Assembly: GCA_951406725.2 (NCBI GenBank)
Contig: OX597840.1
Span: 19,220,001-19,284,000, forward strand
DNA: 64,000 nucleotides
Reading direction: 5' to 3'
Source of the DNA: Octopus vulgaris
Lineage: Eukaryota
Shown here in pieces: positions 3,700 to 59,170 of the stretch. Position 1 is the first letter of the stretch. Each line of letters starts with the position of its first letter. A program made the translations under genes and the position numbers. The notes under the pieces are model-generated. The model searched no databases and was not told the DNA's origin. It was given only the letters and a program-made list of their open reading frames with translations.

Positions 3700-4003
3700 T
3701 ACGGAGATGTACTTGCATAGTAAGTGACCTGAGCTGAGATTGTGCTGAAACAAACACAAGTGCAGCGTGGAAGGTGTTTATAAGCCATTTAAGAAACACA
3801 CAAAAAACCGTTAGCTCCACTTCAACATCTAAATTTAATTTGCCAAAATATTTTCGTCACTTTGAGTCCATGACCTGTTAACTGACAAATAGAGAGATTC
3901 AGCACGGTATTTTGTCAGTGAACAGGTCACGGTCTCAAAGCGACGGAAATATATTGGCAAATTAAATTTAGATGGTGAAGTGAATCTAACGGGTTTTGTG
4001 TGT
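3700..4003. mobile_element. Penelope-like tail-out inverted repeat with G3-C8 hammerhead motif
   Basis: Arms 3796-3890 and 3910-4003 are reverse complements, and the long arm ends in (TA)n. Two-arm consensus: TTTGTCA GTGAACA g GTC..GAC GAAA ATAT TT TGGCAAA. Confidence 0.7.
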
Positions 4004-5384
4004 TATCAAGCATGTGAAACACTGGACGTGAAAGGCCCTAGTTCTCATTAGAACAGCTCTTTTAAGAGAAGGTAAATTGTAAATTAAAAGTCTTGAAGTG
4101 CAGTCGATGTGTATTCGCCATGACTCCTGTTGTGTCACTTGTTTTATGGCTAATTGCGCTGAAAAGAGGTTCAGTGCTGTGCAACACTTCATGCACTCAA
4201 AAATGAATTATAGTTAATACCTAACTGAACTCACATATCATTTTTTCTCATAAGGATAAATATGAATCTCCTAGATTCTATTTTGCTGTTTCCTTTCTCA
4301 AGTCCTTTGTAAAAATTTTGTTTATACTTTTTGCACTGAAGAGTACAGTAATATATAATTAATTTAAGTAATTCAATACAACCATGAATTTGCATGATTT
4401 TTTATATCTCCGTACGAAACGATTAAAATTCTCTTATACGTTTTAACATTTTTCTCTTCTCCATTTTTAACAAAATTATCGAGCTTTATAGGATTTCTTT
4501 CCAACACACCATACACAAGTATATATTATGTTACACATACACACACACACACACATATATATATACATATATATATATATATATATATATATATATATAT
4601 ATATATATATATATATATATATATATATATATATATATATATATATGTGTATATATATATGTGTATATATATATGTGTATATATATATGTATATATATAT
4701 ATATACATATATATTTATATATATATATATATATATATATATATATATATATATATGTATGTATGTATGTGTATGTGTGTGTGTATATATACATGTACAT
4801 ATATATATACACACACATACATATGTATATAGTTAGTAGTTAGGTTATATTTTGTTAAGAAAGTAGTAGAGTAAAGTATAAACCTCGTTCACCTTCAGAT
4901 TTCACCCTGCGCTATGCAACTTATTCAATTACATATGTATATATATGGAATATACAAGGAATTTTCGTCAACCGGTGTCATGTAAGAGGTATGTACTCTG
5001 AGTGATCCGTTTGATTTACCACTAAAATTCCGGTTTGAACTACTATTGGAAAGTGTGGTGTTGAGACTGTCTATCTGAGACGGCTATAAGTTGTTTCTCT
5101 TTGAGCGGCTAGATATAGAATAAAATGGAAAACGAATAAGCAAAACATTTGGCATCATTTGAGAAAAAAGCATTTTAGATAGGGAATATAAACATATAGC
5201 ATCTCTTCTAGCTGTTTCTAGAACAGCAATGCATGTGATAATGATGATAATGATGATGATGATGATGATGATGATGATGATGATGATGATGATGATGATG
5301 ATGATGATGATGATGATGATGATGATGATCTCTTTGAGATCATCATTAGGAAAACGAAAGAGGTTGAAAAAAATCTTCAAGTAC

Positions 5385-5620
5385 TTATTTCTTTACAACC
5401 CACAAGGGGATACACACAAAGTGGACAAATAAAGGACAGACAAAGGGATGAAGTCGATTATATTGACCCCAGTGCGTAACTGGTACTTAATTTATCGACC
5501 CCGAAAGGACAAAAGGCAAAGTCGCCCTCGACGTAATTTGAACTCAGTACGTAACGACAGACGAAATACCGTTAAGCATTTCGCCCGTTGTGGTAACGTT
5601 TCTGCCAGCTCGCCGCCTTA
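5385..5620 (-). mobile_element. SINE family B (Meta-domain-like), nested in a Dong-like LINE fragment
   Basis: Minus strand AAGGCGGCGAGCTGGCAGAAACGTTA...GACTTTGCCTTT.GTCCTTTCGGGGTCGATAAATTAAGTACCAG. TCTTCAAGTACT-like sequence is repeated on both sides. Confidence 0.85.
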
Positions 5621-5624
5621 ATCT

Positions 5625-5940
5625 GCAAGTACTCCGAATCTTCAAGTTCTCCGAATTAAAAGTAGAAATGGCAAGATTGTATGGAATGCGAGGGGGTAAT
5701 GTAAAAGTGATACAATGGGCTCAATCCCATTGAAACTCCAAGACTTTTTAAGACAACTGGAAATCCCTCGAAAGGATGATGTCTTGCAAAAAGCAGTCTT
5801 ATTGGGCACAGCACACATCTTAAGGAAAGCATTATTTGTCTGAGGTCCTTGTTGTAACTTGACCTTTGATTAAAGACTCCGGTACATTTTTACCTACACT
5901 GTGTCACGAAGGAATAATAATGATAATAATAATAATAATG
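5625..5940 (+). mobile_element. R4/Dong-like LINE 3' end with (TAA)n tail
   Basis: KFSELKVEMARLYG...LQKAVLLGTAHILRKALFV*, then a 3'UTR and AATAATAAT. Confidence 0.85.
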
Positions 5941-55670: not shown

Positions 55671-57660
55671 ATATATACAACTATAACTAGAGGCTCACAT
55701 ACATAAACACAGGAAGAGAGAGAGAGAGAGAGACAGAGACAGACAGACAGACAGAGTGGGAGAGAGAAAGACAGAAAGAGGAAGATAGAGATGTACCCAT
55801 TCATACAAACAAGCAAAACGTTCACACACATAAAAGAGAGAGCGGGAGGGAGGGAGAATTATATATCTTAGTAATTGGTCTACTCCATCAGGGATGACCT
55901 GGGGTTAAAGAAGTACCATAGCCTACTACAAGCCAACAAGGGAGTCTCTGCAAAATCATTCGCCTTGCAAGAAATAACAACCAAATCTTCCTCAAATCAT
56001 GCACGTGCTTGGGGGAAGTAAAAGACGCGTTGGACGTTGGAACGCACCATATCAAAAGGCGAGATTGTCACGGATGGATCACCAGTATCAAATGTCCCGT
56101 ATCTGCTCGGTCAGTGCTTACCTGAGGGCTAAACAATGATCTGAACGAAAACTGCACCAACACCGCTCCCGCCGTCCGCCCCACCATGACCAAGATGACG
56201 ACACCACCACCATCAACAATAACAACTACTACTACTACTACTACTACTACTACTACTACTACTGTTACTGTTACTACTACTACAACTACAGCAGATACTA
56301 CTACTACTACTGCTGCTGCTGCTGCTGCTACTACTACTACTACTACTACAATTACTACAACTACCGCCATCACCAACATCACCACCAAGTCCATCACCAT
56401 CAGCTACTACTACTACTACTACTTTTACTACTACTACTACTACTTCTACTACTACTACTACTACTTCTACTACTACTACTACTACTACCATCACCAACAT
56501 CACTAAGTCCATCACCATCAACTACTACTACTATTACTACAATTACTACAGCTACCGCCATCAACATCACCAAGTCCATCACTACTACTACTTTTACTAC
56601 TACTACTACTACTAATTCTACTACTACTACTACTACTACTACTACTACTACTACTACTACTACTACTACTACTACTACTACTACTACTACTACTACTACT
56701 ACTACTACTACTACTAATGAGAGTGGTATAAGAACAAGATAAACAAGTAGAATTACTGCTGCTTCTACTATGGCTGTTATTGCAACAACAACAACAACAA
56801 CAAGTACTACAACCACTAAAACTACTAGTATTCATACTGCTACTCTCTGTTGCTGCAGCACCTGCTGCTGCTGCTACTACTACTACTGCTGCCACTACTT
56901 GGACAAATGTTATGAATCTTGTGAGATAGAACAGACATTGTAAATCAAAGAATGGTAATTCCATTGATCTCGGAGATTCCAAATGTCTTGGAGGCTCTGA
57001 CTGATGAGTTAAGATCACGAATGCAATATATTAGTGAACAGGCCATATACGGACAGAGACACACTCGCATGAACACAAACACACAAACACACACTCGCAC
57101 ACACAAAATGGGTATATATATATAAATGCATATATATTTATATATATGTACCTATTAATCATGACGAATGCACAATGTTTATATTCTATATTTAAATTAA
57201 ATGTTTTTGGAATGGTGCCAAATGTTTCGCTTATCCATTTTCTATTTCTCTCTGTCCATTCTCTCTCCCTTCTCCCCATCTCTCCCTCTACACACACACA
57301 CACACACACATACACACACACACATATATATATATACGTAAATGTCGAACAATGAGAATTAGAAATCAACACGCCATTGATTGATAAAATTTCTTTATTT
57401 GTGTATTAAGGCTACCACTGGTTTCGTGTTAGGAAGCATATCTTAATATTTTAACAATTTTTCAAGTCAGTTACATGAAGGGATGGTGTTTGTCTCCATT
57501 TTGGATGAAAACGCATATATATATATATATATATATATATATATATATATATATATAATATATATATATATAGTTAATCCAAACATGAAAACACATCAAC
57601 GCGAGGACGTGGAACAAATATAATATTATTGGACGCTTAGGAAGGAAGGGAAGAAGGAGG

Positions 57661-57696
57661 GTTTAACGTTTCGAGCGGAACTCTTCGTCGGAAACA
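57661..57696 (-). ncRNA. Minimal hammerhead motif (U4C variant) in a Penelope-like terminal fragment (57572-57772)
   Basis: Minus strand GTTT CCGACGA a GAG ttccg CTC GAAA CG TT AAAC: stem I GTTT/AAAC, palindromic stem III AACGTT. The element ends in (TA)n. Confidence 0.6.
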
Positions 57697-58496
57697 TAGG
57701 AGAAGGAAAGATCCAGAGAAAGGAAGACAGAGGGAAAAAATCGCCAACGGTACACACGCGGTCACATTTTGAATATGTGTGTGTGTGTGTGTGTGTTTGG
57801 GTATTAAAGCTACCATTGGTTTCATGTTAAGAAAAATATCTCACTATCTTAAAAATTTTTGAAGTCGATCTCATGGAGTAATGGTGTTCGTCTCCATTTT
57901 GAGTAAAGCGCGAAAATTCGCGGGAATTCACAAATAACTCTGGTAAAGAAGAAATCAAAGGGCGTGACTCTTGCATGACACTTTTGGAGTGATTATCCTA
58001 TTATATTCTTTTATTCCTTTGCTTGTTTCAGTCATTTGACTGCGGCCATGCTGGAGCACCACCTTTGGTCGTACAAACTGATCCCAGGACTTTGTAAGTC
58101 TGTGCTACAAAGGATTACCAGAGTTGAATTTTGTTGCCATTTGAACTGTCTTTATTCCTTCTTTTTCTCTTCTCTGTCTTTTTGCTCTTTTTTGTGTTTG
58201 CATTAAAGACTTTTATTTGAACATTTTTTATTTTGCTGGGGACTTTGATATTTTATATTTTAGTTTATTTTATCAATGGTAAATTCTAAATGAATTAACT
58301 CAGAAATTGGGACCGATCCAATAATAACGATTGTTTAGAAATTTCTATCGGCTTGCTTTCGAGACGCGTGTTTATAGTGATAAATTATGTGGTTATTGAA
58401 GATTAAGTCTACTTTCGGCATATTTGACATTGGAATTTTCTTTTTTTGCCCTTGTTTATAAGTTTATATATATATATATATATATATATATATATA

Positions 58497-59170
58497 TATA
58501 TAAGAAAAAAGGTTTGAAAATGCAATTTAAACGATGTTTATTTACTTAACCGGTTTCACTCTTTGGTAAAAGATTGTCAAAAGTAACATTAAAAGTATCA
58601 TTGAATAATATGGGTTCAAAAAAAGTTTTTTACATAATTGTCACATTGAATATTATGCATTCAAAAAAGTTTTTTACATAATTGTCACATTGGATATTAT
58701 GAATTCAAAAATGTTTTTTTATACATAATTGTCACATTACATGTATAAATATAGTGTTTCGTAACAGAGAAGTTCAATAGTGTGATGAGAATATTTGGAA
58801 AAATTGGCAGAAAAGGATAGAACAAATATATTATTGGAAATTTGGTTGCGTTAATTATTGGTTGTCGCAAATTGTCACATTACATGTATATATATATATA
58901 TATATGTCTTTGGCATATATATACAATCTTTTGACAGCAAAAATTAAAATGGATTTTTTATACATCTCAGAATATTTTTGAATGCATAATATTCAATGTG
59001 ACAATTATGTAAAAAACTTTTTTGAACCCATATTATTCAATGATACTTTTAATGTTACTTTTGACAATCTTTTACCAAAGAGTGAAACCGGTTAAGAAAT
59101 AAACATCGTTTAAATTGCATTTTCAAACCTTTTTTCTTATATAATCCCACTCGTGCGATACCCCACAACT
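58497..59170. mobile_element. Penelope-like tail-out inverted repeat between (TA)n tracts with a U3-A8 hammerhead motif
   Basis: About 170-bp near-identical arms (58497-58667, 58975-59143). TTACTT TTGACAA TCTTT tacc AAAGA gt GAAA CCGG TT AAGTAA at 58542-58586 (-) and 59055-59099 (+). About 42-bp tandem repeats in the spacer. Confidence 0.75.

Follow-up and report, generated by a model that had tools for sequence, protein, structure and literature searches.

In the genome of Octopus vulgaris, one 64,000-nucleotide stretch (GCA_951406725.2, contig OX597840.1, positions 19,220,001 to 19,284,000; hereafter the window) holds several palindromic elements that lie next to (TA)n runs and carry minimal hammerhead ribozyme motifs in which core positions 3 and 8 are paired in three different ways. 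This locus raises the question of whether such palindromes are working units in their own right or debris of coding retroelements, and whether the swapped pairs point to ribozymes under selection. A preliminary description of the window had taken them for non-coding, ribozyme-bearing Penelope derivatives whose symmetry yields a sense ribozyme together with long double-stranded RNA (dsRNA) from either strand. The observation behind it is real, was rightly recognized as Penelope hammerheads, and is mostly known. We find that the window features are very probably the truncated 3' ends, or pseudo-long terminal repeats (pLTRs), of six Penelope-type families, four of which are joined to reverse transcriptase (RT) and GIY-YIG endonuclease genes elsewhere in the genome and two of which consist of tandem units lacking an open reading frame (ORF); each family would carry a minimal hammerhead predicted to act only as a dimer. 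A bolder proposal, about which we are slightly more doubtful than confident, is that one of them, family A, is a natural, active lineage with a G3-C8 pair that completes the set of swaps within one Penelope clade, and that its thousands of copies of 150-210 nt are strong-stop-like complementary DNAs (cDNAs) copied from the capped 5' end of a sense transcript that had not been cut. Publications are cited below by PubMed Central (PMC) accession.

Coding relatives of the window elements

The families are labelled by their positions in the window: A (3796), B (7830 and 10349), D (58497), E (52888), F (52215 and 58265), and G (57572). Each is dispersed through the 2.8-Gb genome (G000), where a first look gave between 935 and 2,462 candidates per family, figures that are not copy numbers. 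The full-length order is pLTR, ORF, a long microsatellite-rich 3' untranslated region (UTR), pLTR, tail, and (TA)n; on the 5' side there is often a truncated copy in inverted orientation.

Family D is young, with copies 98-99% identical and with all 150 of 150 scored endonuclease matches at 97-100% identity. At locus L091, a 752-amino-acid open RT/endonuclease frame lies 2 kb upstream of the motif, and an inverted truncated copy lies on the 5' side. Full-length family D copies carry direct pLTRs spaced 5.8 kb apart; the protein is assigned to RVT_1 by Pfam. In about 1,004 copies, family A continues upstream into a UTR rich in microsatellites, and the same ORF, with a GIY-YIG domain (PF01541), was reached upstream of the family A end in 5 of 14 long loci. 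The window arms of family A show 84-87% identity to the 3' end of the ORF-bearing element (86.5% across 208 nt when the long arm is compared with the 3' end of ORF-bearing locus L325). Among named relatives, the one nearest to the family A protein carries the label Octopus vulgaris in its source, and its family is present in the genome at 88-100% identity. For family G, a GIY-YIG endonuclease was found upstream in 2 of 25 oriented loci, with an RT farther upstream in L482.

A CX2-5CxxC linker and an endonuclease CCHH motif can be read in the translations of families A, D, and G, which suggests that these are of the Neptune/Nematis type. They resemble the endonuclease-positive (EN+) elements of that type (Craig et al. 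2021, PMC8557442) in possessing an RT with a C-terminal GIY-YIG domain, this linker, the GIY-YIG cysteines, pLTRs, an inverted 5'-truncated copy, a tail, and a (TA)n target. The family A tail is longer, at about 58 nt as opposed to 30-40 nt in canonical EN+ elements. Canonical EN+ elements are credited with a single ORF (PMC8557442), but family D has two: its ORF1 (~450 amino acids) and the RT/endonuclease frame share a 58-nt overlap, in the -1 frame.

Five of six family D copies, among them L449:1234-4943 and L218:5182-8894, possess the heptamer TTTTTTA at this ORF overlap. Contigs of runs guessed to be RNA span the overlap without a gap, and no more than a weak hairpin follows. It is possible that the overlap is a programmed frameshift in an EN+ element; a literature search for frameshifting in such elements gave nothing beyond a figure legend of PMC8557442.

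Family B is of a different kind. Of 30 loci selected because they match the distal end of its UTR, 17 contain a Hydra-type endonuclease in a decayed upstream ORF, and the motif lies 0.9-1.0 kb downstream of the ORF in L379, L380, and L384. The translations share with the Hydra clade (PMC8557442) the CxCX5C linker, the absence of CCHH, and a CxxC before the conserved E, as well as the (TA)n target and the canonical core; CxxC and CxH stand around E and N, with CxH reading CPY or CPH. Unlike the Hydra clade, all ORF copies seen are frameshifted, and the N-terminal part with the DKT and RWK motifs was not recovered. At L446 (G000:C2:102038000-102046500), four family B ends occur at a spacing of about 1.4 kb with no ORF match in the unit.

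In families E and F, the sequence upstream of the motif is the same as that downstream of it. Family E locus L288 contains 11 sense cores at a spacing of about 550 bp and one inverted copy, while family F forms two-unit tandems, with direct copies spaced by 468 and 476 bp, and also has a circularly permuted copy, giving a unit of about 470 bp. No ORF was found in these units in the few long loci examined, a weak negative that counts as a soft spot in our assignment. Both families look like ORF-less, retrozyme-like tandem units. They share with animal non-LTR retrozymes (PMC7229834; bioRxiv 10.64898/2026.07.22.740005) head-to-tail units without an ORF, one type I hammerhead in each, and a Penelope-like insertion pattern; their units of ~550 and ~470 bp differ from the ~300 bp typical of retrozymes, and most copies are dispersed and partial.

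The linked RT and GIY-YIG genes that the preliminary description had proposed to look for were therefore found elsewhere in the genome for A, B, D, and G, that is, for three of the four palindromic families and for the family at 57572. Its attribution to Penelope-type elements with minimal hammerheads and a palindromic helix III was right. Its label of non-coding derivatives fits two of the six families, E and F, which look ORF-less; the others are truncated ends of coding elements. ORF-like matches at L294 and L323 (family A), L279 (family B), and L292 (family E) come from different Penelope families nested there, so we did not count them as links.

Palindromes as probable insertion by-products

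Tail-out inverted arms beside (TA)n were confirmed at all the positions where they had been described, as were the single arms (Table 1); the first palindrome is real and starts at 3700 rather than at 3796. Pairs of this kind are common in the genome. Among the 100 listed of 693 exact family D matches, 62 form 31 tail-out pairs spaced 83 bp to 9.7 kb apart and none form tail-in pairs within 10 kb (pairs were counted by eye), and nine tail-out pairs within 200 nt were found among the 100 listed of 6,232 family A matches. The palindrome junctions differ from copy to copy, and many copies are single-armed. An inverted 5'-truncated copy with a one-sided tail has been described in PMC8557442 and PMC3846280, and dual motifs on opposite strands, 100-700 bp apart, in PMC4209133. 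The opposite-strand pairs, the tail, and the (TA)n targeting are already published, along with the U3-A8 and U4C cores.

Folding of read-through RNA gave unpaired probabilities of at most 0.003 for the sense-arm core in the 7830 (family B) and 58497 (family D) elements, and below 0.1 at five of seven core positions in the family A palindrome. Helix III folds only between two copies, with a hairpin energy of 0 and duplex energies of -0.2 to -11.7 kcal/mol. Because the arms lie on opposite strands, a single transcript never carries the two sense copies that a dimer needs, and thus an active ribozyme from the palindrome is not plausible. Half of the earlier proposal survives: dsRNA from the palindromes is plausible on these folding models, and a ribozyme from either strand is not, as the antisense arm is made first and would pair with the core, and arm lengths vary. 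The palindrome would be expected to bury the ribozyme rather than expose it, and the idea of a functional palindrome is not supported.

The proposal of independent non-coding palindromic elements, in which symmetry supplies both a working ribozyme and long dsRNA, draws on palindromes that are real and fold into long hairpins, on the lack of ORFs in families E and F, and on strand-switch joints at the family A 5' end that also occur in contigs of other runs. We consider it very unlikely, since it is contradicted by the continuation of A, B, D, and G into ORFs, by arm lengths and junctions that vary in every copy, by the many one-armed copies, and by a hairpin predicted to pair the core in transcripts that never hold two sense copies. 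The inverted ends and TA flanks could likewise be read as those of miniature inverted-repeat transposable elements (MITEs), DNA transposons with terminal inverted repeats and a TA target; the unequal arms, one-sided tails, 5' truncation, single arms, and continuity with RT genes refute this reading, which we regard as negligible. Fixed palindromic units and MITEs were both rejected as candidates, there being no equal repeats that move as a unit and RT links being present.

The truncated Penelope ends preferred here could instead arise during ordinary insertion. The element's endonuclease would nick AT-rich DNA, as suggested by the sequences and by the anole Poseidon element in vitro (Frangieh et al. 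2024, PMC11167929), which likewise has an AT-rich target and in which two internal RT starts explain the tail. Reverse transcription may start at either of two internal RNA sites, leaving ends with or without a tail, and both nicked strands could serve as primers on one and the same RNA end, with early termination of synthesis giving unequal tail-out arms. The palindromes would then be ordinary by-products of insertion and not designed dsRNA or ribozyme units, and the window copies would be dead on arrival, with read-through RNA locking their ribozymes in a long hairpin.

The 3-8 pair and the fixed 5' ends

Family A copies carry G3 in 114 of 116 and C8 in 113 of 120 cases; genome-wide, 98 of the 100 listed among the 6,232 exact matches are G3-C8 and none are C3-G8. 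Family D is U3-A8 (U3 in 46 of 46, A8 in 44 of 46, and all 100 listed of the 693 matches). C3-G8 prevails in family B (C3 113/116, G8 115/116), family E (32/32), family F (C3 60/66, G8 62/66), and family G (C3 75/80). The core CCGA is a minority in family B (6/116) and the majority in family G (U4C in 47/80). A core pattern of N3 U4 G5 A6 N7 N8 A9, followed by GAAA and UH and with 3 and 8 paired, is the family majority in A, B, D, E, and F, and with U4C in G. Helix I closure and a palindromic helix III requiring a second copy are present. As read from the sequence, an extra base between A9 and 10.1 with a G10.1-C11.1 pair is present in A and G and not in B, D, E, or F.

The preliminary description had inferred covariation of positions 3 and 8 from the cores of unrelated families, which alone do not show it; homologous comparisons do. 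The comparison set consisted of 12 metagenome loci related to the family A protein. Three of these hold a descriptor motif behind the ORF, with C3-G8 in L341 and L345 and U3-A8 in L342, and degenerate motifs were recognized by eye in four more (C3-G8 in L338, L343, and L348; U3-A8 with C9 in L337); the remaining five have no motif or no 3' flank. An in-genome sister family of A, represented by L485-L514 outside the window, carries a hammerhead-like motif that reads CTGATGC (C3-G8, C9) in 22 of 26 cases; its grouping with A has 99/96 support, and deeper nodes of the tree are weakly supported. Since homologues bear C3-G8, U3-A8, and G3-C8 at the same place, the two sides of the pair have undergone joint changes about three times. 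The pair exists in no fold other than the active one, and its three-way swap among homologues argues that the active fold was selected. We suggest that selection in master elements kept N3 and N8 paired while swapping C-G, U-A, and G-C. The hammerhead would then serve the master element, its palindromic helix III pairing with a second pLTR copy, and the element's protein probably aids the dimeric hammerhead.

These families resemble the metazoan pLTR hammerheads of Cervera and de la Pena (2014, PMC4209133), which also have the type I order, a short helix I, and a palindromic helix III, occur as solo copies by the thousand where elements are truncated, and form opposite-strand dual motifs. That paper also reports a U3-A8 variant with about 1,300 hits, Cercyon of Schistosoma, so that U3-A8 in Penelope hammerheads was already in print in 2014; U3-A8 and U4C variants have been published for hammerheads generally as well (PMC3088659). 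G3-C8 is absent from its main text and from the portion of its alignment that we compared; in addition, families B, D, and F depart from its extra base after A9 and G10.1-C11.1, and helix II of family E reaches 45 nt. In print, G3-C8 was found only as a laboratory mutant with partial rescue (PMC11167929, PMC8495972, PMC3884650), and the engineered C3G/G8C mutant of Poseidon, which is partly active, corresponds to the natural state of the whole of family A. No natural G3-C8 core was found among the sources covered by our literature search, and the words hammerhead and ribozyme are absent from the main text of the octopus repeat annotation PMC13282606. A natural G3-C8 family with homologous 3-8 swaps thus appears to be new. 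As had been predicted, searches restricted to CUGANGA miss the G3-C8 and U3-A8 families; one G3-C8 family adds more than 6,000 missed motifs in one genome, and the natural swaps supply pairs for testing.

The second part of our proposal concerns where the copies begin. Among the 100 listed of 1,362 family A matches reaching AGATG, 36 have a long form and 64 end no more than 3 nt upstream (TC^AGATG). At the position of the element's C, these 64 short copies have G in 40, C in 15, A in 5, and T in 4 (the search pattern excluded C at -4), an excess of G with p = 2.6e-10 against 0.25. The short copies share nothing upstream of the extra G, and the + arm in the window also has a G there (3894). Contigs from four other runs show loose ends and strand switches at the same 5' end, which is thus not an assembly artefact. 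At the other extremity, family A has two 3' ends about 58 nt apart. In family G, 1,006 matches stop just before ATTC (at TCATTC), compared with 153 long matches, which were counted separately because the short-form pattern excludes the long form. We take TCAGATG and TCATTC to resemble an initiator, and reverse transcriptases add a base opposite the cap.

The simplest reading would be that the short family A copies represent reverse transcription of a sense RNA from its capped 5' end, primed inside the pLTR as happens in vitro (PMC11167929), and since they run through an intact hammerhead, the template would have been uncleaved. The short copies of both A and G could then start at an initiator inside the pLTR, and in the family A + arm A3895 would be the transcription start and G3894 the cap-derived base. 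A promoter with an initiator inside the pLTR has been described (PMC2377424, PMC3846280). A trans-spliced leader as the family A 5' end was rejected, as the bases upstream of the G vary. No published description of a pile-up of short copies with an extra G was found in a literature search, and we believe the cap-like pile-up to be new. If true, it would be a genomic record of Penelope priming inside its own 5' pLTR on sense RNA, would explain solo pLTRs and tail-out palindromes, and would settle the question of a sense or antisense template posed in PMC3846280. It would also offer a handle, readable from sequence, on the RNA template (sense, capped, and uncut) and on the promoter position.

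Several observations weigh against these readings. Few family G matches show the extra G (7 of 100 listed, where TA runs abut) and the cap-like G is absent in family B at TCATAG (3/100), while the family A sequence upstream of the 5' end also resembles a splice acceptor. Families B, E, and F are without the published extra base after A9 or have a base on the other side, and helix II of family D is atypical, with a U-A closing pair and a 2-nt bulge before G12. Covariation relatives are few (7 of 12 loci with a readable motif), and the deep branches of the tree are unresolved. A family D subfamily at L218 has U3.G8 (2 of 46 copies), possibly an intermediate between C-G and U-A. Within families, the core is barely better kept than its flanks (0.97 versus 0.93 in A; 0.96 versus 0.92 in B). 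A core about as variable as its flanks indicates that family copies show no selection of their own; dead copies are expected to vary in this way, and thus within-family conservation beyond background, the test put forward in the preliminary description, is uninformative about function.

It could be argued that the G3-C8 and atypical U3-A8 motifs are dead relics, or structures for protein binding or promoter activity, with the swap fixed by drift in a master. C3G/G8C restores laboratory ribozymes only partly (PMC11167929, PMC8495972), and Penelope hammerhead cleavage is slow and dispensable for insertion of the anole element in vitro, where uncleaved RNA is the template and no reads end at the cut site (PMC11167929). 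Likewise, family A starts do not pile up at the predicted cut site (about 3 of 138), and the sister family carries C at position 9. Yet double changes that preserve a pair specific to the active fold, seen three times within a single clade, are what selection for that fold predicts, and the motifs have also kept GAAA and UH, stem I, and the palindrome of helix III; we consider the relic explanation somewhat unlikely. The fixed 5' end of family A might also derive from splicing or an RT stop and not from a capped start, because about 1,004 long copies have an upstream sequence, CTAAC...TTTCTCAG, that looks like a splice branch point with its acceptor, and Penelope pLTRs are reported to contain introns near the hammerhead. 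However, the AG is still present in the short copies, which have no common sequence upstream of the G. The single spliced junction that was searched for gave 0 matches, the contigs of the four runs contain no splice joint (though repeats are skipped there), and an added G in 40 of 64 copies is not what a plain stop would leave. This origin strikes us as improbable.

Feature inventory of the window

Motifs were sought with a descriptor of the type I minimal hammerhead in which N3 and N8 were free to pair, written with the preliminary description in view. It found 6 complete motifs in the window (the complete motifs of families B, D, and G in Table 1), as opposed to a mean of 0.16 and a maximum of 1 in 100 block-wise dinucleotide shuffles. 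Rfam gave 482 matches for the window, and the 150 of these that were listed include no hammerhead. The motif order given earlier (stem I, core, stem II, GAAA, short palindrome, UH, stem I') is borne out by these six; both arms of the 3796 element are damaged, so neither holds a complete motif and the intact form is that of the family A majority, and the 58975 arm has a deletion in stem I'. That the 52888 element retains only a 3' half was confirmed. Of the two family F arms described as single-arm relatives, 52215 has a complete canonical motif that had gone unlisted, and 58265 has a 3' half alone.

Table 1. Penelope-type features of the window (positions are those of the window).
Feature	Positions	Strand	Remarks
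Family A long arm	3700..3889	-	3' end of coding Penelope-like element, 58-nt tail, ends at (TA)n; hammerhead 3839-3889 (-) with G5 lesion (core GTTAACA)
Family A short arm	3894..4004	+	Begins at fixed 5' end of family A
Family A hammerhead	3911..3961	+	Core GTGAACA 3918-3924 (G3-C8); damaged, GGAA replaces GAAA and A replaces U16.1 (AT where UH is expected)
Family B (Hydra-type) short inverted arm	7827..7953	-	Complete hammerhead 7856-7916 (-), core CTGAAGA
Family B long arm	7954..8143	+	Ends at (TA)n; complete hammerhead 7976-8038 (+), core CTGAAGA, helix III ACTCGGAGT; predicted cut after 8032
Family B long arm	10349..10549	-	Complete hammerhead 10453-10515 (-), core CCGAAGA (U4C)
Family B short arm	10616..10737	+	Complete hammerhead 10645-10705 (+), core CCGAAGA, helix III 2 nt shorter
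Family F single arm	52109..52410	+	Complete canonical hammerhead 52219-52279, core CTGAGGA
Family E long arm	52886..53115	-	3' hammerhead half alone: GAAA, ACCGCCGGT, UC, stem I'
Family E short arm	53700..53833	+	No hammerhead; microsatellites and an unrelated repeat lie between the two family E arms
Family G fixed-length copy	57572..57774	-	Flanked by two (TA)n runs; 5' end at initiator-like TCATTC; complete hammerhead 57661-57695 (-), core CCGACGA
Family F single arm	58281..58466	+	Hammerhead 3' half alone
Family D long arm	58497..58978	-	3' end of young coding element; complete hammerhead 58542-58586 (-), core TTGACAA (U3-A8), helix III ACCGGT; predicted cut after 58548
Family D short arm	58975..59143	+	Core TTGACAA 59061-59067; stem I' with 1-nt deletion; arm with tail 58975-59179
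Family D tail	59144..59179	+	36 nt, on one arm only; (TA)n next

Further traces of these families occur in the window. A 62-nt 3' fragment of family B lies at 27054-26993 (-), and a decayed piece of Hydra-type endonuclease at 8782-9054 (-) (E 2e-7). The sequence at 36262-36381 (+) matches the microsatellite-rich UTR of family A at 82%, which may be a low-complexity match. Beyond the window, the flanks of the fetched loci (~0.8 Mb) contain at least 10 more unrelated hammerhead families, nearly all C3-G8 and many with a very long helix II.

Two other features are of a different nature. An abundant repeat resembling a short interspersed nuclear element, unrelated to the Penelope ends, forms a head-to-head pair with 232-nt arms of 93% identity at 55197-55676, with further copies at 13890, 18879, and 20997. 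Finally, an open frame with C2H2 zinc-finger-like repeats lies 3' of a microsatellite at 776-1363 (+); it could represent an exon or the terminus of a long interspersed nuclear element.

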